Below are positions 19,972 to 53,458 of a stretch of DNA of 64,000 bases, in pieces. A program made the translations under genes and the position numbers. The notes under the pieces were generated by a model. It had not been told where the DNA came from. It was given only the letters and a program-made list of their open reading frames with translations, and searched no databases. The stretch lies in the NCBI GenBank assembly GCA_958009085.1, contig OY253687.1, positions 496,001-560,000 on the forward strand, written 5' to 3'. Source of the stretch: Protoeuglena noctilucae. Taxonomy: Eukaryota. Within the stretch, counting starts at the first letter, position 1; every line of letters starts with the position of its first letter.

Positions 19972-21186
19972 ATGGGGGCGGTTGGGTTCTTTGGCTACGG
20001 CTTCATCGCCCTCAGCCCACTCGTGGCTGTGAGCGTCGTGGTCATCGCCAGGAAGAGCTTCCTCGTCCTGCTCGCCCTGCTCTCGAGCGCGTGGTACCTG
20101 CTGTCGATGCTCGGTGCGTCGCCTGCTCGGGGCAGTCCGCCATGGCACTGGAACAGCTCCATTAGAGGCGCAGAATTCGTGGCAGTCGCGACGCCGTCCC
20201 ACGAGCCCGCTCCGGTGCTCTGCGCCCAGTGACGTGGGGGATGATGCGAACATCCGCTCCGTTCGGCGACCGCGTGGGCCTCTACGTCGCGGGCGTGATG
20301 CTCTCTGTCGTCATCCAGGAGTGCGCGCGCTTCGCCCTGTGGTGGGCCCTCAGCAAGATGGTGAGCCCGTCGAAACAGTTACGCGCCCGTGCTTTCGACG
20401 CCTGGCCCTCCGCGCTGGGACCGATTGGCAGCCGTGCGACCCCATCTCAGATGAATTCACTCCAAGAACTAGCGAGGGATACGCCTAAAGGCCGGCTGAC
20501 CGCGCTGGAGCGTGTGGAAATCGCCCTGGCCGCGGGCTGCGGCCACGCCTGGGCCACCGCCCTCTTCTTCTTCGTCTCTTTCCTCCAACTGTCGTACGGT
20601 GAGGAAGCAACTGTCGATGCATCGTTCGCTGGCCTTCCACTGCTCTTTTGACTTCGTTCTTGTCCCTGCGAACGTATGCCTGCGTTGTGGTGATTCCTGC
20701 AACACCCTCAAGCGCTCTTGGTCACCTGCACGACACAAACCGACCCGACCTGCGCTCGCGTGCACCGCAGGACACAAGTCTCTCCGCTCGCCCGCCTGCG
20801 TCGCCCTCAACGCCTTCCTCGCCCAGGCCCTCAACTGCCTGGGCATGACCCTCCTGCACATGTCCCTCATGGTCGTCTTCGTCATGGGCATGGAGAGCGC
20901 TTTCGGCTTCCGGTCCAGACCCGCGACGCTGCTTGGGATGTTCGAGCCCCTGTCCGTGCCCTTTGCGCACCTCGCAGTAGCCCTCGTAACGGTGGCCTCG
21001 CTCCAAGACGGCGGGTGCCGCGGTGCTATCCCCGTCGTCGTCATCGCCGGCGTTGCGTCCGTCGCCTGGGCCACCGTCGTAGCGCGCAGGCGCCTAGCCC
21101 GCGGCGCTCTTGGGGCCCGGGGTGATGACCTCAGCGCTGTTGTGCAGCTCACTGGCAGCCAGGTCCCGTCGGCCCCGGTGCAATAG
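19972..21186 (+). CDS. APH1: Gamma-secretase subunit APH-1-like multi-pass membrane protein
   Basis: GFFGYGFIALSP, SVVIQECARF, IALAAGCGHA, TLLHMSLMV, PFAHLAVA; seven hydrophobic segments. Confidence 0.88.
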
Positions 21187-27081: not shown

Positions 27082-27503
27082 CGATCGGGCGATCAGGCAA
27101 GCCGGGGACGACGCTACGGGAGAGGAGAAGGTGCGCTCACTGGCGGGACGTCGCTCTCAACCAAAGAGGAGGCCGACGCCTGGCTGGAGTGACGCAATCC
27201 GCCTGTCTCGTCCATGTGAATGCGCAGACGAGCAGTTTCGGGCAAAGCATTGCTTTCAAGCTGCATCGGGGGGAGGGTAAACGTGCTGGAAAAGATAGGC
27301 CGTGCGAATGCACCAATCCTGCATTCGCTGATGATGCTTATATGTTAGTGGACGTGCTGCTGCCTGACGGAGTCGCCGGAAGTATCTGCGGCGGGTGCGG
27401 GTTGCAGCAGCTGCAAAATCAAAATCGCGCAGCTTCCGGACGCCCGACTTTACAGTTCAAAAAGATCTGCAGCCGCGGCACTCGCGTGCATGGCGACCTC
27501 CAT

Positions 27504-27559
27504 GTCCCGACCCCCGCTCTCTGGGCAACCCTCCGGACCCTGGGTAAGGCCATATAAAA
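27504..27559 (+). promoter_or_regulatory. U1 snRNA promoter: USE-like box (27506-27519), second box CGGACCCTGGG (27534-27544), TATA (27553-27559)
   Basis: 32/41 ungapped identity with the U5 upstream region, at identical offsets (-79, -51, -32) from +1. Confidence 0.85.
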
Positions 27560-27584
27560 GCGCCGCGGGCGGCCTGAACCTGTC

Positions 27585-27745
27585 ATACTTACCTGCACTG
27601 CCAACTCGTCGATCACGAAGGACGGATCGGGTCCCGTCGCTGCTAGGCCTTGCACTTCGCCCTGCGGCGCGGGACGGCGGCCCCACGAGGGTTCGCCAAG
27701 TGACCATTTCTGGATTGCTGGGGACTTGTTCCCCGGCCCCCCCCC
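27585..27745 (+). ncRNA. U1: U1 spliceosomal snRNA
   Basis: 5' ATACTTACCTG; loop I GATCACGAAG; stem II GTCCCG..CGGGAC with loop CTTGCACTTC; stem III GGCGGCCC/GGGTTCGCC; helix CACT/AGTG; Sm-like ATTTCTG (27706-27712); 3' G/C stem. The 3' end is approximate. Confidence 0.95.
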
Positions 27746-27777
27746 TGCGTTCTTTAACGCAACACTGATCGGAAGCA
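27746..27777 (+). terminator. Putative snRNA 3'-end formation element: hairpin TGCGTT-CTTT-AACGCA + ACACTGATCGGAAGCA
   Basis: The same hairpin + identical 16-mer follows U5 (51355-51387, minus strand). Confidence 0.75.
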
Positions 27778-28156
27778 CAAAGAAAGCGAAAGCTGGCTAG
27801 TAGCGCGGTAGCTTCAAAGAGGAAGAGGCATGCGAAAGGATTGTGTTGCACAGATCCCAAAGATCACCCCAGATGATCTGCACATCCCACCTCAGCAAAC
27901 CAGGAGAGCTAAGTCGAGCAGTGCGTGGTCTCCCGCGTCTCCCCGCCACGTAGGATGTGGCTCGCTCTCGTTTTGACCGATGTTCCACCAATGCTGTGCA
28001 TTCCCGAGTTCCCGTCTTGCTGGCTTACTGGCTTTCGATGACTGGAGAGGCACCAAGGCACCTCTTCGCAACACCGCTCGCCGGTGACCAACCAAAGCAG
28101 CCCCATTCCGTTTCACCATTGGGGGTGCCAACACCCATCGCAATTGAGGTTTCGCA

Positions 28157-31100
28157 TCACACGTCTCTTCGCTCCGCATCGATCTCGCGGTTGGCCGTGC
28201 CCCCTCCGCGCGGCTTGGAGACGTACCCCGAAAACTTGTTCCCCTCCGAAAAGGTCCGCCCCGCCACCTCCTTGACACGCTGCGTAGGAGAGCAGGAAAG
28301 CAGATTGGTCAGTGCGGTCCATGGGGTCCCTGCCAGTTCCTAAAACGTCACAGCAACACTCGTACGTCACAAACACCCCCCAGCCCTCGCTCGCCTGGGC
28401 CGTCATGCTGTCGATGGCGTCCAGGTCGCGCAGCAGGCCCCGCCACGACCCCGTGATGGCGTGGTACTGGCACAGGATCTGCGCCATGGACAGGTTGGAT
28501 CTGCGGGCGAGCGAGAGAGGCCTCAAGCTCGCGGCCACTGGCCCCACCACGGCCCTGTTGCCGTCAGCATGACCGCCGACGCGCCCAACGGCACCCAGCG
28601 ACTTGCCCGATGACTTCCAGCAGCGAAATGCGGGATCCCTTCTTGACACGGTTCAGCTCCCGCTCCGTGGGCCCCGACTCGACGAGCCGGGCGAGTTCCT
28701 CCTTCAGCAGCGCCTCCTGCTGCTCCAGCCGCTGGTCGGGCGGGGGCACCCCGACCGTCAGAAACATCGACTGCCGCTTCTCCCCCGGGTACGACGGGAC
28801 GACCGACGCTGCGAGGCGGTGGGCGGGGAGCGGAACGGACTCGCTAGGCGTCGACTGCCAACTCCCCTCTCCCTCAGCACACACAAGCATGCCAGCATCG
28901 CCGGTCGCGCCCACGCCCTCACGCTTCCTGACCACGGCTACCCACTCCTCCGCCAGTCAGAGACTGCGCACTGGTTCCTAAAAGCTGTTGGCCAACGCAT
29001 CGAGGCCTGCAGCCTCACCCGACAGGGACTGGCCCCGAGCGATCAGGTTGGAGTAGAGGCGCGAGGAGCGACCCCCCGATAACACGTCAGCAGTGACCTG
29101 GAGGGCGATGGAGTCGTCAGAGGCAGCGGGGGGACGGTAGTAGCCCGCCATGAAGAGCGGGCCCGCGTCAGACTCCCAGCGGAGGCACTGTACTGCCTGC
29201 TTGGGCGGCGGGGGCGGCGGGGTGCCCAGGGTGCTGCCGAGGAGAATCATCTCGGACGGCGTGAAGGGGTTGGTGTCGTTGACGTTCTTGCGGTCCTGGA
29301 TAACCTCGTCGTCGTCCACAGGGGCGCTGGCCGGGGGCGGGGCTGCAAGAGTGCGAGAGTGTTGGGGGGTCGGTGACACAAAGCTCGCAGCGGCCAGGGC
29401 AAGCGGGGCGGGAGCGGGAGGACGCGCTCACCGGGCGCCGGCGAGCTGGTCCCCGAGGCGCTCTGCCCTGTGCCGGGGGTGGCTGTGGCTGTTGCGGGGC
29501 CTGGGCTCCCAGCGGCAGGGTCGGGGGAGGTATTCTTGGCAGTGGACGGCGATGGGGTGGGGACCACCCAAGCGCCCCAGTATTTGTTTGCGAACGCCTC
29601 GACCCTCTCCGCATCCACGTCACCCACCACGGCCAGCGTCAGCCTGCATGGATGGTGCCAGGCGTGTATGATGGCCCCAATGACACGACTTGCGCAGCCA
29701 CGTCCACTCGCTGCAGCTCGCGCGCACACCTGTGCGGGTTGTAGAATTTCTTGAAGAACTTCTCGACGTCCCGCCGGCTCGTGTTGCGGATGTCCGACTC
29801 GTAGCCAATCACGGGGCGCCGGTAATTGGTCTTGAAGCCCTTGAAGGCGAACGCCTCTTGGAACTTCCCCAGCGGCGCCACCTCCACACGCTGCCGCCGC
29901 TCCTCGAGCACCACGGCCTTCTCCTTGAAGAAATCCCTGAGCCCAGTCAAAGCGTGGCAGTGCATTATACAGAGTCTAGGTCCATGGATGGGGTGGGGTT
30001 CGACATGGGGGCGCGAACAGAGCTGTGTTGAAGCGCTTGCTCGCCACGTACCGGAACACGGGGTCCTGGAATCGGGCGCTCTCGAGGGCGAACCAGAGCT
30101 CGAGCTTGTTGCTGGGGAGGGACACGTAGTATCGCGTGCTGTCTTGGGACGTCATGGCGTTGAGGCCGACGCCGCCCTCGCGCTGCAGGATGGTCGCGAT
30201 CTCGTTGGGGACCACCAGGGTACTGGCGCGCGACACGAGCTTGTCCAGGTTGACCTGCAGGGGGCCGGGAGGGGAGCAGATGGGGCAGTCAGGTACTAGC
30301 GGGGCGGCCCATGGCATGCAAATGTTAAGATACCCTCAGACGGCGGCCATGGCAGAACGAAAATCGTGGAAAGACACACCTTCAGCTTCTTGATGTCGTC
30401 TGCCCGCCTCTGCTTCTCTGCCTCCCGGAGCTCGTAGAACGTCTCATCCATCGCAGACAGCAGCGCCCGCTCCTTCTGGTAGTCTTTCGTGCCGATCGTC
30501 GACGTCCCTTTGAACGCTGCGGGGCCAGGGAGGACGGTGTGTCGAACTGGACGGGTCTGATGAGCACCGAAAAGTACAGAGGAGCCAGCAAAGCATACAC
30601 CAGGGCTCACCCAGATGCTCCAGCAGGTGCGCGATCCCCGTCCGTCCGTCCTCCTCATCGCACGCGCCGACGTCCGCGTACGTGCAGCAGCTGATCACCG
30701 GCGCCGTGCGTCGCTCCAGCACGATGACGTGCAGGCCGTCGGAAAGCGTGAACTCCTTCACCCGCTCCTCCAGCGTGTCGTGCGCAACCATCGACCTCCT
30801 CTGCGGTGTAGTGAGAGTGTTTATCGACCCTTTGCGTCGGGGACCGACGCGCGGAGCTGCAGCGCGGACTCGCGCGAATGGGGCGCGCCACGCTTCATGC
30901 ACGGAGACCCGCGCGCGCCCGGCAAGCCACGGCCTGCCCACCTCAGCCGACATCGGAGCTATTATGCTCTCAGCGCGTGCCGGGCGGGCCTGCGAACCCG
31001 CCATAGCCAGGGTGGCGGCCCCGCCCAGCACGTCCCTCCGGCTCGCACCCTCCCCGGGCTCTCGGGCCCCCTGGCACCGATGCGGGGCCGCGTTCTTTCT

Positions 31101-31771: not shown

Positions 31772-34700
31772 ATGGAGGGCGCTGGCGCAGGACCCAGGAC
31801 TGCGATGGACGACGTCACGACCGAGGGTGCGTTCCCCGCTGGCGCGTCGACGGAATGCGCTTAACCCTGGCCCAGGGGGGCGCGCAGCTGACAACGCATC
31901 CGAACGCTCCCGGGACCCACGCCCCTCCGCGACGGTCCCCCGCCCCGCCAGCCGCAGAAGCGCTCGCTGACGGCCAGCGCGGGGTGCAGCGCAAGCAGGC
32001 CAAGCCCTTCCCCGCCGGGGCGCCCGAGCCTTTGGCAGACGCCCTGCAGACCACCCGCGAGGCGCGGTCCTTCGTCGAGCTGCTCAATCGCATCGGTGCG
32101 CAGCGCGTTTTGATCTTCCTTGCTTTTGACTGCCGCGGCGGCACCTCGCCCGGCGTCCCCGCTGAGCCCTGGCCCCAACGCCCGTGTGCAGAGCGCCTGC
32201 ACAGCCCCACGGCCTGGGAAGCGCGCCAGGGATCCCCAGCGACGGGCGAATCTCAGCACTCGGCTTCGGAGCCCTACCAGCCGGAGCGCTACTCCGCGGG
32301 GAGCGCCGAGACAAGTCCGGGAGCTGCAACAGCAGAGGCGAGCGGCCCACCCTGCACTGCCTGCCTGCCTGCACTTCTCCGTCGCGATGCCATGGCTGGC
32401 TGAACGGCGCCAGCTCTTCTTTTGCCCTCAGAAAATCGCCGACATCCAGGCGAGGTTCAAGGACCTGCTGGATGGGACAGTGGCCCCCCGGGTAGCGCCG
32501 GCCAGGTCCAGGGTCGAAAAGACCGCAGGGTCGGTCCAGGCCCACAGCCCCGCGTCAAGCTCCGGATCGACGGGGGGCGTTGCGGGTCGCCCCGCGCGGC
32601 CGGACGGCTCGCGGAGAGCGTGGGACTCTGGGACTGCGTGGGACGAAGCGTCTTCCAGGCCCACGCGGGGGGCACCCAGCGCCACGGCAGCCAACGCGAG
32701 CGACGCGGCGAGGCTCGCCGGAGACAAGCGTCGGCAGGCGCGGGCGCCTGTCGCGTCCGTGCCGCCCCAGAGCACGTTTACGGTCGGAGACGCGGGTGCG
32801 GCCTCCGAGCCCACCCGGGTTGCCCCGCAGCCGGGGGCGGCGCCTGCGGACGCAGAGGGTCCGAGGCGGCACCGGGCTCATGAGGAGGTGTCGCGCGCGC
32901 CTCGGGCTGCTGAACAAGCCACGGCACGGGCCGCGAGGCCGGAGGACCCCAGTGCCGCCAATGGTGCCCGGCAGTCCCAGGACCGGGGTCCCAACGATGC
33001 CCTCCGCCGCATGTCCCTCCCGCGGGCGTCCCTGAGCGCCGCGCTGGGCAACGCGACGGAGGAGCTGCACAGCCGGATGCTGCGCAACTCGCTCCAGAAG
33101 CAGGCGGAGCTTGTGGCGGAGATCCAGCTGAGGCAGCAGAGGGAGGACGCGCTCTTGACGCGACTGCGGGCGTCGAGGAAGAAGGAAGCGGCACTCGCGG
33201 GTGAGGGCGCGGAAGCGCACGGGGCCGCATCAGTTGTCGCGTGCTGGGCCCAGCCGAGGTGTGGCGGTCGCGGCCCAGGGGTCCGCTGGCCCTCTGTCAT
33301 TATGTCGGTGATCGCATGGCTACTGTCGCTGGCGTTGCTTGCACGGGGCCAGGCCCGAGCAGCGGAGCATAGACGTGACGACGCCTGCCCGCCCATCGCA
33401 GCGCGCCTTGCTGAGTCGGAGGAGGCGCTTCGGGGCGCCCAAAACGCGGCGGCGGACACGTCCAAGATGGTGGAGGTGGAGTCCCGGCTGGCGGCGCTGG
33501 AGCGGGACTACCAGCGCGCCCTGGCCGACAACGCGTCTCTTACAGCGCAAGTGGCGGCGGCCGAGGGGGCGGCGGCGCAGGCGCAGGCGGCGGCGGACGC
33601 GGGTCGGCGGCGCGCGGAGGCTGCCGAGGCGCGCGCTGCCGAGTCCCGGTCGGAGATCCGCCGTCTGGAGGCGGTGGTGGCGGACACGGGGGAGGCACGG
33701 CGGCAGGCACGCGAAGCCCTGGGGGAGATGGCGCAGCAGAACGCACGCCTGGTGGCCGCCTTCATGGCCAAGAAGACCGAGTTGCAGCAGGCTCGGGACG
33801 CGCTGGACGCGGAACGCCGCGCTGCGTCCTTGAGGGACGTGGAGGCGGCCGCCGCGCTCGCGGCCGCCCGCGCCGACTGCGAGTGCCTCCGCCGGGTCGT
33901 GGCGAGGTACCAGGCCACCCTGCGCGGTGGGGGAGCCGGAGCCGGGGCGGTGCCGGCTGCGCAGCCCAGCCGCGAGGACGGGCAGGGCGGCGCGGCGGGT
34001 GCAGCCGGGCGCGACGGTGTCAAGGAGTGGCGCGAGGAGCGGGAACAGTGGCGACAGGAGCGCCGGGCTCTGTTGCAGGAGCTGGATCGAATCAAGGACT
34101 GGGCCTCGGGGGCTGCGGAGGGCCCGGGGGCCGATGGGGAGTTGGTGGGTGAGGATGGGCCGCAGGGAGCGGGCGCTGAGGAGAGAGGGGCGTACACGAG
34201 CGAGACCTACGCCGAGAGGACCGGGGAGGAGGTGGAGGGGGACGGGAAGGGCCAGCGGAGGGATGCAGAGATGTGTGGGGCGCCACCGCCGAGCGGGCCT
34301 CTAAAAGAGGATGCAAGGATCGGCGACCCCAGCGCAGCAAAGGAGAGCGCGGCTGGCGAGGGAGTCGCGAGAGGCGCGGGTGGCGCCGAGAGCGGTGCCG
34401 AGGGCGTGGGGGCGGCGGCCGCGGACCTGCGCCGGTCTCAGTCGCAACCCGCTCCGCGTGTGGGGGAGGGCCTGGACCGCGACCCACCTCCTTACAAAAC
34501 CGAGGGCGGAGATGGCGAGCGGGCCCCACGCCCCGCTGAGCCCGCGTCGACGCCGGGTGGTGACACTGGGGCTGCCCGGGCGGGCGACGGTGGGGCGGGC
34601 GGAGCGAGGGACGCTGGTGCTCGCAAGTCCTCGGAGACGACCGAGCGATCGGACGGGCAGGCCAAATATCCGGACGTCTCTCAGGGAAGCAGCTGGCGAT

Positions 34701-36178
34701 CGGACCTGTCCCCTTTGCGCCGGCGGCAGTGGGCCGGGGAGGGCTTTGCGGCGCGGGGGGCGTCGGGTCAGTGGACGGGGGGCTGGGAGGCGGGCGAGGC
34801 CGGCGAGGAGGTGGACTCTGGCAGCCAAACGCGCCCGTCGTCGCGTTCTGACAGCGGGGGCTCGGCGTCAGATCGGTACCGTGTTCCAACGTCCGGGCGC
34901 GCCTCCAAGGCCCACGCCGGCAGCGCCTCTCCGTCCAATAACACCGATACGGCCGGGAGCGCGGGGTCGGGGCGGGAGCACGGGGTCTCTGCGGAGGGCC
35001 TGAAGGAGAGCGGGAACCGGCTTTTCCGGGAGGGACGGTACAAGGAAGCCGTGCAGAGCTACACGAGGTGATGGGCGTGTGTTGGAGATGGGGTGCTGCG
35101 GCGTGAAGTAAGTGACATGTGATTGCTGGAGCGTCTTGGTGTGCCGGGAACTCTCTCGTGTTGCTGGCATTGGTGCAATGGCGCAGCTATGGGCTGCGGC
35201 CCTGTGTGCGCTGCAAGGCTGCAAGCGTGCCAAAGGTCCCTACCTCTTCGCACCGAAATGGATATCTATGTCCACGCCACCCCCCCTCTTCTGTCACGCA
35301 GGGCTCTGGAGGCGGCCAGCAGTGACTCGATGCGGGCCGTGCTGCGTGGCAACCGTGCCGCAGCGAGCCTGGCGCTGGGGCAGTACCCTGACACGATGGT
35401 GGACTGCCTCGTGGCGGCGAAGCTGGACCCGACGTACGCCCGCGTGCATCAGAGGCTCGCGGAGGCCCACGCGGCGGTCGGCGACTTCGCTAGCGCTCAC
35501 GCAAGCCTGTGCGACCTGAACAGGTGAGGCGCCAGGGGTGCCAGAGGTTGGTGTCCAAGGTGGTCCGCGTGCTCGTGTACATCCCAGTTGCCTGGCTTCT
35601 TTGGTCATTGCGGCGGCCCCTACTTCAGGGCTCCCTCTGGACACTCTTCCCACACAGGAGGGCGCCCTCGCTGATGACTCCCGACCTGACGGCAAAGCTC
35701 TACGCGTGGCAGCGCAAGGGGCAGTCCCAGGGGGAGCTAGAGCTGTACGCCGTGCTGGGGGTGCCAGAAACGGCGTCAGACAAGGACGTCCGTGCGGCCT
35801 ACCGCCGCATGGCGCTGCGTCTGCACCCGGACAAGGCGCCCTGCGAGGCGACGCGGGCTGCGCACGACCAGGTGAGGCGCAAGAGCCACGGGCATGCATG
35901 AGGTGCACGAGAGGCGTGATGGCGTGAACGGCGTCACACCCGCAACCACCTGCGACCACTCACCAACCACCCCGCGCCGCCTTGCTGCCCAGGTGTTCAA
36001 GCTCGTCGCACGCGCCCACAGCACTCTGTCCGACGAGACCCAGCGGCGGCAGTACGACGCGGCACGGGCGCGGCGCCGCCTGCAGCGCGCCTTCACGACG
36101 GGCGCGCACGGCTTCGCGGCCATGCCCGTCAACTTCAACGTGGGCATGGGCACGCGGTACAGCTACGGCAGATTCTGA
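31772..36178 (+). CDS. Large protein: coiled-coil + low-complexity region + TPR repeats + C-terminal J-domain (DNAJC7-like C-terminus)
   Basis: AEGLKESGNRLFREGRYKEAVQSYTR|AL, GNRAAASLALGQY, LYAVLGV..VRAAYRRMALRLHPDK, FKLVARAHSTLSDETQRRQYD. The 5' exons are less certain. Confidence 0.8.
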
Positions 36179-44055: not shown

Positions 44056-44793
44056 CGCGCTGGAGCGCGATCGTAATCGACAGCTATCGGGCAGTCACTA
44101 TTCACGGCGAATGCTTGCGCAGGAGAGCGCGAGCACGGGCCCCACCAGACCGGCTTTGCACACGCTGATGCGCGCTGTGTCGCGCACCAGGAGCCCGTGG
44201 CTCGCCGCAGTGCACTCCTCGCAAGCTACACGACAGAGTATGTTGCGGGATCGGCGATGTCATGGCTGAGATGCGAAGCGATATCAGGCGTCATGTCAGA
44301 GACGCGACGTCGACCGCATGAACACCGATGGCCGCGATTTCCAGCCACATATCGATCACCAGCACCGAGGGCGCGTTTCGCATCCGCTCCCTGCCGTCCC
44401 CGCTTTTTTCCCCTCCTCCCCCGCTCCGCTCCTTCCATCCGCTGTGCCCCTCGCCGGCTTTTCGCATCCACAGCCCACAAGCGTTTCGGTGGGGCTCTTT
44501 CTGCAGCTGGCGCTTTAGAAAGCGGCTGTTTGCTTGTCTGGGAGCAAAGGTAAGTTAGTCGTGGCTGCGGTGGACGGCAACAGCGAGTTTCTTTGAGCCC
44601 GACCGCCGGCTGAGGGGCCGTGGCTTGGAGGAGCGGGGATTTGCTCGTTAGGTAGCGTTGGACCGTTAGCCGCCCAGGCTCGCCCTCCTCGCCCTCGGTT
44701 GCGTCCCTTATCTCTCGAGCGAGGGCTGCTTGGCAGTCCGGTGGCGGCCCAGGGCCCTCCGCGCGCACTGAGGAGATCGTTTCGGGGGGCGAG

Positions 44794-49246: not shown

Positions 49247-51004
49247 ATGCAGCCCGCTGCCGGTGGGTTTTTCGCCTCGCGCTCCCCGGAATGCGCGCCC
49301 GGCCCCAGTGCCCCGGCGCCGCCCCTTTTTCCGAGGGCCCCCGCGTCGCGTGCCTTCCCGTTGTACCGGACGCGTGACAGCCAACACCTGGGTATCCACG
49401 CGGATCGGTGGGCGCATCCTCGGGTCCATCCGTACGGGAGATCGTCATTGCCATGGGATGGTCTGCACGGTTCACACGGGGAGCGGGCTGCCCGACGGGA
49501 CGTCGCGGCGCGGCGGACGCATTGTGCAGCCTTCGATGCTTTCGATGGTAACCAAGCGCCGGAAGGGGCCGAGGCCCAGGAGTTTCGGCTCCCGGGGGAG
49601 AATGGTGCGGGCGCGCCGGGCACCTCAGGCAGCGGAGCGACGACGAGCGCGGGAGAGGAGCGCAAGCCTCCGGACGCCGACCATTCACCCGTCGATCTCC
49701 CCCGTCGGCTTCAGCGCGCCGTTCGGAGGGCGCAGGCGTTCACGAACGAGGTGAGTGCACCCTGTGTCCGGTGTCCTGTGCTGAGAACCGGACGAAGGCT
49801 GTGCGGTTGTCCGCTTCAAGCGGAGATCCTGACTGTGCTCGCGGGTCGCGCCCGCAGGTCTTGTCCGACCTCCGGGGCGACGTTCTCATGGACCGTCTCG
49901 CAGCACGTTCGGTGCCCTGGACGCTGTGGTCCGTGGCCCAGGTGCTCTTCAGCTGGCTCGTCGCATTCACGTGCATCGGGTGGTGGGCCGTTCCGTGGAT
50001 TCTCGGCCTGACGGGCCAGACCAGGTGCGCAGCCCATGCCGGTGTAGCCAACGCGACAGGGCTGTCCCTCCTCCCCTGCCCATGCCACGGCGCGACACCC
50101 TCGCCCCTGGCCCTGCCCCGCAGGTACACCATGAGCATGCGAGGGCAGGCCCTCCTCCACCTCGTGTTGGACGTCTGGCAGTGCATCATGACCATGTTCA
50201 TCCTCTGGGCGACGCTGCGCCAGCACAAGCCCCTCCAACTCGGCATATTCCCCTTCTCCCTCAAGCCCAGGCGAGGGCGACTGCTCGCGAGGGCCACTGT
50301 TCGCTCGCACTCCTTGTCACCGGCTGGTGGCGCCCAGCGTCTCACCGACTCCACCGGAGCCCCCGTTTCTTACAGGACCTGGCTGCCGTACGTGCTCCTG
50401 GGCCTCTGCTCCTTCCCCTTCATCGAGGGCCTGTCCAACATCGGCGCCGACATCTTCCCTGACGAGTCCGAGGCCTGGGCCCACGGGCTGGGGGAGACCC
50501 TCCTGTCGTGCGACCCGATCACCGCCGGGTCGTATTTCCTCGTGGTGGCCGTGTGCGCACCCCTATGGGAGGAAGTCATGTTCCGGGGCTTCCTCATGCC
50601 GAGTTTCGCCAAGGTAAGCCGTTTCGCTCGAATGCACGGGCGCCCGGGCCGGCCTCGGTGGTGCATCGCACACGCACCGTGAGTAGGACCCCTCTTTGTG
50701 TGCCCCTGCAGTACCTCAAGGTCCCAGGCGCCGTGGTTGCCAGCGCCGTCCTCTTCTCCATGGCCCACTTCTCCCTCTCCCGCTCCCTGCCCCTCGTCCT
50801 TCTCGGCGCCGTCATTGGCGTCCTCTTCGCCGCCAGCAGGTGCGCCAGGCAACATGAGACGTGCATGCATGCCCATGCGCTCGCTCTGCGCCGCATCGCG
50901 ACCCCGCGTTGTACCCTCGACGCAGGAACCTGACGACGGCGGTCGTGCTGCACTCGCTGTGGAACTTCTGGGTGCTCATCACCATCGGCGGGCGCGTGGC
51001 ATGA
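49247..51004 (+). CDS. CPBP/Abi (CAAX prenyl protease type II-like) intramembrane protease, probably plastid
   Basis: APLWEEVMFRGFL, FSMAH, LHSLWN motifs. Start inferred. Confidence 0.88.
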
Positions 51005-51354
51005 CCTCTGGCGCCAAAGGTGCGCAGCACGGCAGCGGAGCTTGCAGCTATGTTGATTCACGCCCAGATCCTCTCCTAGCAACTCTTTTTGAACGGTCAT
51101 CGACGCAGCTGCCAGCGCATGCTGCCACCCCGGCAGATCACCCCAGCACCATTGCAGTCCAAGGTACGCCTGGACTGATTCGGTGACGCCCAGTTGCGCT
51201 GACGTGTGATCACGGGTGACGTCATTTCTGGACAGCTTTTCCAGGGTCTGGTGTTACTGATTTCGCACATTTCAGCATGCACAGGGTCGTTTATATCAAG
51301 CTCCCCGCTGTCCTAGCCTAGTGCTTTCTCTACGCTTCGTGAGGGCGTCGAGTC

Positions 51355-51387
51355 TGCTTCCGATCAGTGTAGCGTTGAGATAACGCT
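51355..51387 (-). terminator. Putative snRNA 3'-end formation element: hairpin AGCGTT-ATCTC-AACGCT + ACACTGATCGGAAGCA
   Basis: Identical 16-mer and covarying hairpin also follow U1 (27746-27777). Confidence 0.75.
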
Positions 51388-51391
51388 GGTG

Positions 51392-51514
51392 TTCCCTCCC
51401 TGAAGGGAGAGGAGTGAGCCCACAAACTCCGTGATACGCCGTTTGGAGTAATTCCTCGGTTGTATTTAGTAAAAGGCGAAAGACAAGTACGCCGAGTGTT
51501 TACTCTGGCGTGAT
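51392..51514 (-). ncRNA. U5: U5 spliceosomal snRNA
   Basis: Invariant loop I in TCTTTCGCCTTTTACTAAA; nested stems ACGCC/GGCGT, GAGTAA/TTACTC, CTCGG/CCGAG; Sm-like AGTTTGTG; 3' stem CTCCC-TTCA-GGGAG. Confidence 0.93.
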
Positions 51515-51540: not shown

Positions 51541-51595
51541 CTTATACTGGGGCCCCCAGGGTCCGAGGGGATGCTGACCGAGCGGGGGCCGGGCC
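51541..51595 (-). promoter_or_regulatory. U5 snRNA promoter: USE-like box (51580-51593), CGGACCCTGGG (51555-51565), TATAAG (51541-51546)
   Basis: Same motifs and same offsets as the U1 promoter. Confidence 0.85.
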
Positions 51596-51817
51596 GGTCG
51601 CGATGAGCTAGCGCTGTCCGGCGTCCTCCACGTGTGATTTTCTTATTTCAAAAGCGATGTCGGGAGCGCCGCAGACGCCACACCGGTTCCTGGCGCCCGT
51701 CGCACGCGCCTTTGGGCCGCCGTCCCACCCCGCCCACGGCATCGCGCGACCCCGCTCAGAGTGCCGGGGTTCAACATGCTCGCCGGCGATTGCCCCGGCT
51801 AGGCCACACGGCCCGCC

Positions 51818-53204
51818 ATGGACAAGAGCGCGTCAAAGAAGCGCCGTCTGGAGGCGCTGGGGGCCGTGCTGGGCAAGGGCGGGCCCCAGCGACCTCCCGT
51901 CAGTGCGTCTCGACCCCCGCCGGAGAAGGCGCGGCCAGCCCCTCGCGCCAGCGTCCCCACCCCTGCCCCCACACCCGCCCCGTCCGCCCCGCGCGAGTCG
52001 GACGTCGCATACCGTCGCCTGGACTCCGATGCGCTGCCCGTCCCCGTCTCGCGCGCGCTGGCGTGGCCCGACGCTCGCGCGGGGGACCCCAAACCCGCGC
52101 CCAAGCCCGGCCCCTCCATCACGTCTCGCCTGGCCACCCTCTTCGCTGCGTCGGCCCCCGCCCCGCCCGGCCCCGCCCCGCTTGCCGTCCCCGACTGGCT
52201 GGAGAAGGCGTCGTGCGGCCCTCGCGGGTGGGACTTCATGTCGGGTGTGCTGGAGGGCCTCATGCAGGGGTCCATGGGGGAGGCCAAGGCCCGCACCGAG
52301 ATGCGCAGCAAAATTGCCGAGCGGAGCCTCCTGCTCGACAATCCCGTCGCCGCGCTCGGCTCGGGCCCCACGCCGAAGCGGCAGACGCGGCGGCGCCTGC
52401 TGCGCGGGAGGGCGGCCAAGGCCGTTGCGGTGGGGAAAGGTGCGGGTGGCGAGGGTGGGTCACCTGGTTGGTTGGCGGCCGGTTGGGCAGCCCCCCTGCA
52501 GCTCCGTCACGCACCCTTCCTCGCCATGCGTCCCTGACGTGTTCTGCATCCATGTAAACCCCTGTGGCGCTCTCTTGCAGGCCATTCGGTGCCCTGGGAC
52601 GCGGCCGTGGCCCTTCGCAAGTCGTGGGATGCCTACGTGCACCCTATGCTCGTCGGAAAGTCCGCCGAGGACGCTCAGAAAGCTCTGTACGCGTCGACGC
52701 TCGTGGGAGCGCCCCTATGCATCACGCAGGCGAGCCGCTGCGACCTCAGCCCTGGCCACGGCCTGGCATTGGCCACGACCTGGCATCAGCCCCGACCCTG
52801 TCCGGCCCGTCCTGGCCTTACTCCCTGGAGTCCAGTCTGCTATCTGCTGCTCTGCGTCTGCCCTACGCTCTTCGCCAAGCACGCCTCTGCCTTTGCCACC
52901 GCAGAGCAGGGACCCCGCGCTCGCTGGGCTTTTGGGCATCGTGCTGTGGGAGTCGCGAACTGCATGGCACATTGCGCTGGATCCGTCCCATGGTGCGCCA
53001 AGTGCCACTCCGGGGGTTGCTGCTGGGCCAGGGGCGATATCGAATACGGGGGCGTCGAGAGTGAGGGTGGTTCCTAAGGCCGGGACTATGGCGACAGTGA
53101 CCCTGCCAGGAGGGGCGGGCACGCCAGTGCTGGTGTTGCTGGCAGGGGACGGCTTGCTCGGACGAGTGCCCGTGCTGGGGCAAGCGGGAGCCGGGACGAG
53201 CTGA
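51818..53204 (+). CDS. POP4: RNase P/MRP subunit POP4/p29-like, 3 exons
   Basis: LLLDNP, ALRKSWDAYV..LYASTLVGAPLCITQ|SRDPALAGLLGIVLWESRTAW..VRVVPKAG. Confidence 0.82.
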
Positions 53205-53458
53205 GGAGAGCACAAGTCATTTCATGGTTGGATGCAAGATGGTCAGGGTCGTATGCGAGAGGTCCAAGGACGAGGCACAGGGTCCGCAGCTGCGGGTGAG
53301 CTTTCCAGGGCCATTGCACGGCTTGCCTGGCATGCCGGAGATCGCGTATGGCGATCATTGCAGCTTGGCCGCTGCCACATGCGCACGTTGCTGGTCTGTG
53401 ACCACAGTGAGCGACGAGGGCCTGGCAGTGGGTCGGCCTCGACGGGCCGTGGCTGTGG

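Follow-up and report, generated by a model that had tools for sequence, protein, structure and literature searches.

To our knowledge, the formation of the 3′ ends of snRNAs transcribed by RNA polymerase II (Pol II) is understood in animals (Integrator), in land plants (DSP1/CPSF73-I) and in yeast, whereas for algae and the majority of protists there is very little understanding of it. The Pol II snRNA genes of animals and plants follow a known pattern, in which common signals frame the gene at both ends; the downstream signal of metazoans, the 3′ box, has the consensus GTTTN0-3AAARNNAGA and is placed 9–19 nt after the mature end. In yeast, the 3′ extensions of Pol II snRNAs feature Rnt1 hairpins, in which an AGNN tetraloop is borne on a long stem, as well as Nrd1-Nab3-Sen1 sites, and the Reb1-type roadblocks of the same organism provide the model for termination at the level of DNA. 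In the histone 3′ stem-loop system, which is centered on SLBP and the U7 snRNP, a 6-bp stem-loop is followed by a conserved single-stranded element. As described in one account (PMC5079582), the metazoan 3′ box is read by the Integrator complex, and its land-plant counterpart, CA(N)3-10AGTNNAA, is short and conserved, lies directly 3′ of the coding region of U-snRNA genes with USE/TATA-type Pol II promoters, is read by a DSP1-DSP4/CPSF73-I complex and is needed for co-transcriptional cleavage. A lineage-specific case is a 12-nt ncRNA 3′-end processing motif of Giardia, [T/A/C]C[C/A]TT[T/C][A/T/C][C/T/A]T[C/T/A]AA. According to its description (PMC3510501), small RNAs that are unrelated to one another have this motif at their mature 3′ ends, overlapping them or lying a few nucleotides after them; the genome is compact, and the motif has served as a handle for the discovery of new ncRNA genes.

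We uncovered a candidate for such a signal in a 64-kb stretch of DNA from a marine green alga (hereafter the window), in which the spliceosomal RNA genes found by Rfam are U1 and U5, which are not homologous to each other (Table 1). The U1 gene scores 65.9 bits, slightly under the Rfam gathering score of 69.5 (E-value about 4e-14 to 5e-16), and it has a canonical 5′ end (ATACTTACCTG), an Sm-like site (ATTTCTGG) and a terminal stem-loop at about 27717–27737. The U5 gene scores 57.9 bits, over the gathering score of 40, and the register of its promoter suggests a start at about 51514. Directly 3′ of both these genes lies an element of 32–33 nt, comprised of a 6-bp hairpin and, abutting it, a 16-nt box (ACACTGATCGGAAGCA) that is identical in the two genes. 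This arrangement had been claimed by an earlier reading made from the sequence alone (the sequence-only reading); on re-reading, the DNA agrees with it letter for letter, as it does with the further statements that the loops differ (CTTT in U1 and ATCTC in U5) and that the flanks are unrelated, with the similarity between the two loci dropping to background past the 16-mer. The hairpin begins 8 nt past the terminal stem of U1, after a run of C, and 6 nt past that of U5, after AACACC. The inner five base pairs are the same in both hairpins, and the outer pair is T-A in U1 and A-T in U5. The same reading had pointed to this closing pair as covarying, which is literally true; however, being a single pair in two sequences, it provides weak evidence for pairing.

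A search of both strands of the window with up to 3 mismatches returned exactly 2 matches to the 16-mer, and the pattern GCGTT-N3-7-AACGC likewise has exactly 2 matches, namely the U1 and U5 hairpins. A scattered repeat, which had been raised as grounds for discarding the motif, is not what is seen within the 64-kb window: there are only two copies, and neither is surrounded by a repeat body. The offset of the element from the transcription start site is +177 in U1 and +144 in U5, indicating that it tracks the 3′ end of the RNA and not the promoter. An AGAAAGC/GGCTAG-like word is present further downstream in both flanks, at differing offsets, and was judged to be a chance occurrence.

Table 1. 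Features of the U1 and U5 loci and their convergent neighbours, with positions in the window
Feature	Position	Strand	Evidence
U1 promoter blocks: CCCCCGCTC (-74), CGGACCCTGGG (-51), TATAAAA (~-32)	27511-27559	+	
U1 snRNA gene	27585-27744	+	Rfam RF00003, model positions 1-166 of 166
U1 3′ hairpin, TGCGTT-CTTT-AACGCA (6 bp, 4-nt loop)	27746-27761	+	direct reading; arms TGCGTT 27746-27751, AACGCA 27756-27761
16-nt box after U1, ACACTGATCGGAAGCA	27762-27777	+	exact match
U1 convergent neighbour: peptidase M16 gene pieces	28567-30335	-	Pfam Peptidase_M16 and M16_C
U5 promoter blocks: CCCCCGCTC (-74), CGGACCCTGGG (-51), TATAAG (~-32)	51541-51588	-	
U5 snRNA gene	51394-51513	-	Rfam RF00020, model positions 1-117 of 117
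U5 3′ hairpin, AGCGTT-ATCTC-AACGCT (6 bp, 5-nt loop)	51371-51387	-	direct reading; arms AGCGTT 51387-51382, AACGCT 51376-51371
16-nt box after U5, ACACTGATCGGAAGCA	51355-51370	-	exact match
U5 convergent neighbour: ORF in which an Rce1-like/CPBP domain begins	49552-50679	+	Pfam PF02517

The two genes also have their upstream regions in common, with three promoter blocks placed at identical offsets from the start site (Table 1), and they are framed by common signals at both ends, as parts of one regulatory design. When the block at -51 is set against the USE consensus ACCCAYAW given for a Micromonas assembly in PMC8287931 (Table 1 of that paper), the ACCC core alone is in common. Two other sites in the window were considered as further instances of this promoter and rejected: a one-mismatch match at 53276–53286, which would have marked a third gene, is accompanied neither by a TATA element nor by the upstream block nor by a small-RNA hit, and a copy of CCCCCGCTC at 44418 is isolated and does not constitute a third promoter.

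None of the described 3′-end signals that we compared accounts for the element. The metazoan 3′ box resembles it in its association with a dedicated snRNA promoter and in its placement, which is between a few and about 20 nt past the mature end; unlike the algal element, it is degenerate and unstructured, and its consensus has no match in the whole window, nor does the half-motif AAARNNAGA occur in either flank. The land-plant box offers a closer parallel, both in the type of promoter with which it is coupled and in lineage, green plants being the nearest one; it differs from the algal element in that the latter is longer, invariant over 16 nt and endowed with a hairpin, a feature that the plant box does not share. 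A regular-expression search for the plant consensus found no match in the 150 nt after U1 or U5, where AGTNNAA by itself is equally absent, and 13 matches elsewhere in the window. Hence, the earlier statement that neither the plant nor the metazoan box matches holds for the 150 nt downstream of both genes. A Pol III terminator is likewise absent, since neither gene has four or more consecutive T in the 150 nt downstream of it. The yeast systems are comparable in that the 3′-extended transcripts of Pol II snRNA genes carry a hairpin; unlike an Rnt1 site, the algal stem has only 6 bp and its loops are CUUU and AUCUC, and no Nab3/Nrd1-type words are common to the U1 and U5 flanks. The Giardia motif finds no exact match, with the best partial ones (10/12 positions in U1 and 9/12 in U5) falling inside the background of 500 random 150-nt segments (mode 9, maximum 11). 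Of the likeness to Giardia that had been proposed, the general arrangement, a motif just after the 3′ ends of unrelated small RNAs, stands, but the sequence match does not rise above background; further, PMC3510501 reports the Giardia motif to be devoid of secondary-structure potential, unlike the hairpin-bearing algal element. On segments of 66–71 nt, the element is not hit by any Rfam family, even with the threshold relaxed to E≤10. These genes need a 3′ signal of some kind, and the known ones are absent from the 150 nt downstream of each, which we count in favor of the element being that signal. What is generically expected of an snRNA 3′-end signal, a conserved element common to different Pol II snRNA genes at a fixed short distance after the coding region and in the same orientation, is found at 2/2 of the snRNA genes in the window. 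In the freely accessible literature searched, we found neither the 16-mer in print nor an account of green-algal snRNA 3′ signals.

Neither component of the element is significant when taken alone, because the window, which has a G+C content of about 65% throughout, contains 8 unrelated pairs of exact repeats of at least 16 nt and 88 perfect 6-bp hairpins with loops of 4–5 nt. The significance comes instead from the common position, order and orientation of the two components directly after two non-homologous snRNA genes: the chance of encountering the 16-mer within a 45-nt flank is ~4e-9 (a composition-based estimate), and 0/283 control segments have a word longer than 14 nt in common with the U1 locus.

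The core of the box, GATCGGAAG, is similar to a portion of a widely used sequencing adapter. That the element stems from an adapter or from the assembly is, however, rejected by a run from an independent study, in which one contig spans all 601 nt of 27400–28000 with 0 differences at a depth of 282. This region is present in full in marine-metagenome DNA runs, which may be its source, and in four runs of one organism from another study; given these runs and the green-lineage genes of the window, we treat the DNA as that of a marine green alga. In the comparison of 27400–28000, which drew on contigs and not raw reads and included three metatranscriptome runs along with the independent run, the contigs of the three metatranscriptome runs (all from one study) cover only the stretches from 27793, 27801 or 27813 to 28000; they begin 16–36 nt past the 16-mer, reaching neither U1 nor the element, and contig ends of this kind do not map an RNA end. 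These contigs, extending rightwards from the said positions, overlie the 3′ side of the peptidase M16 gene on the minus strand. In the public collections, an exact search for the 16-mer in metagenomes recovered at least 119 loci, and among the matches listed 0/119 have AACGC within 8 nt upstream; a scan of viral contigs yielded 11 loci with the 16-mer, none having an AACGC arm in the preceding 40 nt; and a scan of prokaryotic genomes with AACGCN plus 14 nt yielded 1 locus, which belongs to a Planctomycetota MAG, lacks a stem arm on its upstream side and is not hit by any Rfam model. The listed matches from these three sources are chance matches without the hairpin.

We propose, with about an even chance of being right, that the hairpin and the 16-nt box together form a lineage-specific cis signal for the 3′-end formation and termination of Pol II snRNA genes; as such, the element would do in a marine green alga what the 3′ box does in animals and land plants. 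In the corresponding proposal of the sequence-only reading, the parts that have stood are the position of the element, its tracking of the 3′ end, its presence at two non-homologous snRNA genes with a common promoter and the absence of the known boxes, and this support comes from n=2 instances, both in one 64-kb window. The retention of both hairpins in the folds of the whole snRNA plus flank also speaks for the proposal, as do the differing loops and the swapped outer pair, which suit an RNA hairpin better than a DNA site of fixed spacing; the weakness of the hairpins, their ordinary folding in a 53-nt context and the frequency of 6-bp hairpins in the window speak against it. From these features we infer a course of events in which Pol II would initiate at the common TATA-type snRNA promoter and transcribe through the snRNA and the element, whereupon the nascent RNA would form the 6-bp hairpin with the 16-nt box lying single-stranded beside it. 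A sequence-specific factor tied to a CPSF73/Integrator-like endonuclease could then read this bipartite signal as RNA and cut nearby, after which exonucleases might trim the product back to the terminal stem and the Sm core, 6–8 nt upstream, and the polymerase would be let go before entering the convergent protein-coding gene.

The last of these steps bears on the gene neighborhoods. Both U1 and U5 face a convergent protein-coding gene in a compact arrangement, which makes a need for prompt termination plausible; the chance of both being convergent with their neighbour is about 1 in 4. At the U1 locus, the peptidase M16 gene is recognized from hits on three minus-strand ORFs (29979–30335, 28981–29427 and 28567–28956), several of which are under the Pfam curated cut-off. 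At the U5 locus, the match to PF02517 (24.2 bits, cut-off 22.4) covers residues 328–355 of the plus-strand ORF. On the other side of U5, and divergent from it, a long ORF at 51657–53204 on the plus strand has its onset some 70 nt beyond the U5 promoter blocks, on their upstream side; it shows a weak, sub-threshold match to the RNase P/MRP subunit p29 (E-value 0.0027, 18 bits against a cut-off of 27).

An unlikely alternative is that the element operates at the level of DNA, with a DNA-binding protein on the 16-bp box, perhaps together with the palindrome, stopping Pol II as a roadblock, and the 3′ end being generated by exonucleolytic trimming. The strict invariance of the box (16/16) is as would be seen in a protein–DNA site, and at both loci the element is located in the short gap before the convergent gene. 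The folding results are also congenial to it: although the isolated hairpins have folding energies of -4.9 kcal/mol in U1 (2/200 shuffles as good) and -5.1 kcal/mol in U5 (0/200), they fold no better than shuffles when placed in a 53-nt context (z 0.16 and 0.00, respectively), and they are weak and thermodynamically unremarkable in that setting. However, the spacing of the half-sites differs between the genes (4 versus 5 nt), and the two members of the outer pair have symmetrically changed places, both of which are easier to reconcile with pairing in RNA than with a DNA site bound by a dimer; judging from these two sequences, the differing loop length and the swapped pair may thus weakly favor an RNA hairpin over a DNA site of fixed spacing. 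The orientation of the element is likewise fixed relative to the snRNA gene, which also tells against the roadblock.

Quite improbable, in our estimate, is the possibility that the stable snRNA or its long-lived precursor includes the hairpin, alone or together with the box, as an extra 3′ module common to both genes, which would bind a common factor for export, assembly or stability and would not be a signal for cleavage or termination. Such a module would be compatible with the proximity of the hairpin to the terminal stems (6–8 nt) and with its independent folding in both full-length folds: the U1 hairpin is retained in the minimum-free-energy and centroid folds of the 206-nt U1 plus flank, and so is that of U5 in both folds of U5 plus flank. 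The Rfam models, moreover, cannot place the real 3′ ends. Against this, the full length of both models is accounted for upstream of the hairpin, and a precursor of this kind would still need a separate terminator, none being visible within 150 nt.

A more elaborate version of the proposed 3′-end signal is a dedicated bipartite system, in which a stem-loop-binding protein, acting along with a trans reader of the 16-nt box (a U7-like guide RNA or an RNA-binding protein), positions a CPSF73-type nuclease. We hold this to be very unlikely; if true, it would mean that a histone-style logic for snRNAs has replaced the Integrator-type 3′ box, and that all Pol II small-RNA genes of the lineage are marked by the motif, through which unannotated ones would come to light.

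Still more doubtful is histone-type processing in the strict sense, with an SLBP-like protein on the stem-loop and a U7-like guide RNA pairing with the box to position CPSF73. Its appeal lies in the form of the element at U1, where a 6-bp stem with a 4-nt loop, the dimensions of the histone stem-loop, is followed directly by ACAC and, a few nucleotides on, by a purine-containing box, and in the homologues of SLBP and LSM10/LSM11 in green algae that are reported in a 2026 preprint (10.64898/2026.10.14.759114). However, the U5 hairpin, with the same 6-bp stem, has a loop of 5 nt, the element stands behind snRNA and not histone genes, and the histone stem-loop model RF00032 matches neither hairpin, be it at E≤1 across the window or at E≤10 on the 66–71-nt segments 27730–27800 and 51335–51400; with this, the analogy to the histone stem-loop and its downstream element that had been drawn earlier loses its footing. 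Histone genes are also not in evidence in the window, where a search with six short motifs of histones gave 0 matches. The suggestion that a guide RNA reads the box finds no support within the window, a complement of the 16-mer being absent elsewhere in it on either strand at up to 3 mismatches. Least credible of all is that the element has no role for the snRNAs and serves the convergent mRNAs on the opposite strand, or is a mobile fragment, a gene-conversion tract or a product of chance or assembly: at both loci, the convergent protein gene does have the reverse complement of the element just past its 3′ side, and the core of the box is adapter-like, but no other gene in the 64-kb window has the element, the similarity ends sharply at its borders without a repeat body, the sequence is identical in the independent run at depth 282 and the positional chance is ~4e-9.

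Returning to the proposed lineage-specific 3′ signal for snRNAs, a 3′ signal as long and invariant as this one, and including a hairpin, would be uncommonly rich in information. If it were general, it would provide a genomic handle for all Pol II small-RNA genes in compact algal genomes, as the Giardia motif has done, a bait with which to identify the recognition factor, the processing machinery of this lineage being uncharacterised, and a compact terminator for small-RNA expression in marine green algae.

The remainder of the window contains several genes of green-lineage character distributed over intron-split ORFs, including those with starch-binding CBM53/CBM25 domains, a class-V aminotransferase and ribosomal protein L3, among others; a Rubisco-activase-domain match is weak and sub-threshold. 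On the minus strand at 20313–20359 lies a match resembling the type I hammerhead ribozyme, under the Rfam gathering score (25.5 versus 34 bits), in which the core reads CUGAGG-G as against CUGAnGA and the cleavage-site triplet is not kept; judged by these substitutions, ribozyme activity is improbable here. The G+C content of the window is highest (71%) at 32001–36000, and within this stretch, on the plus strand at 32120–35071, lies a 983-aa ORF read with translation table 11.
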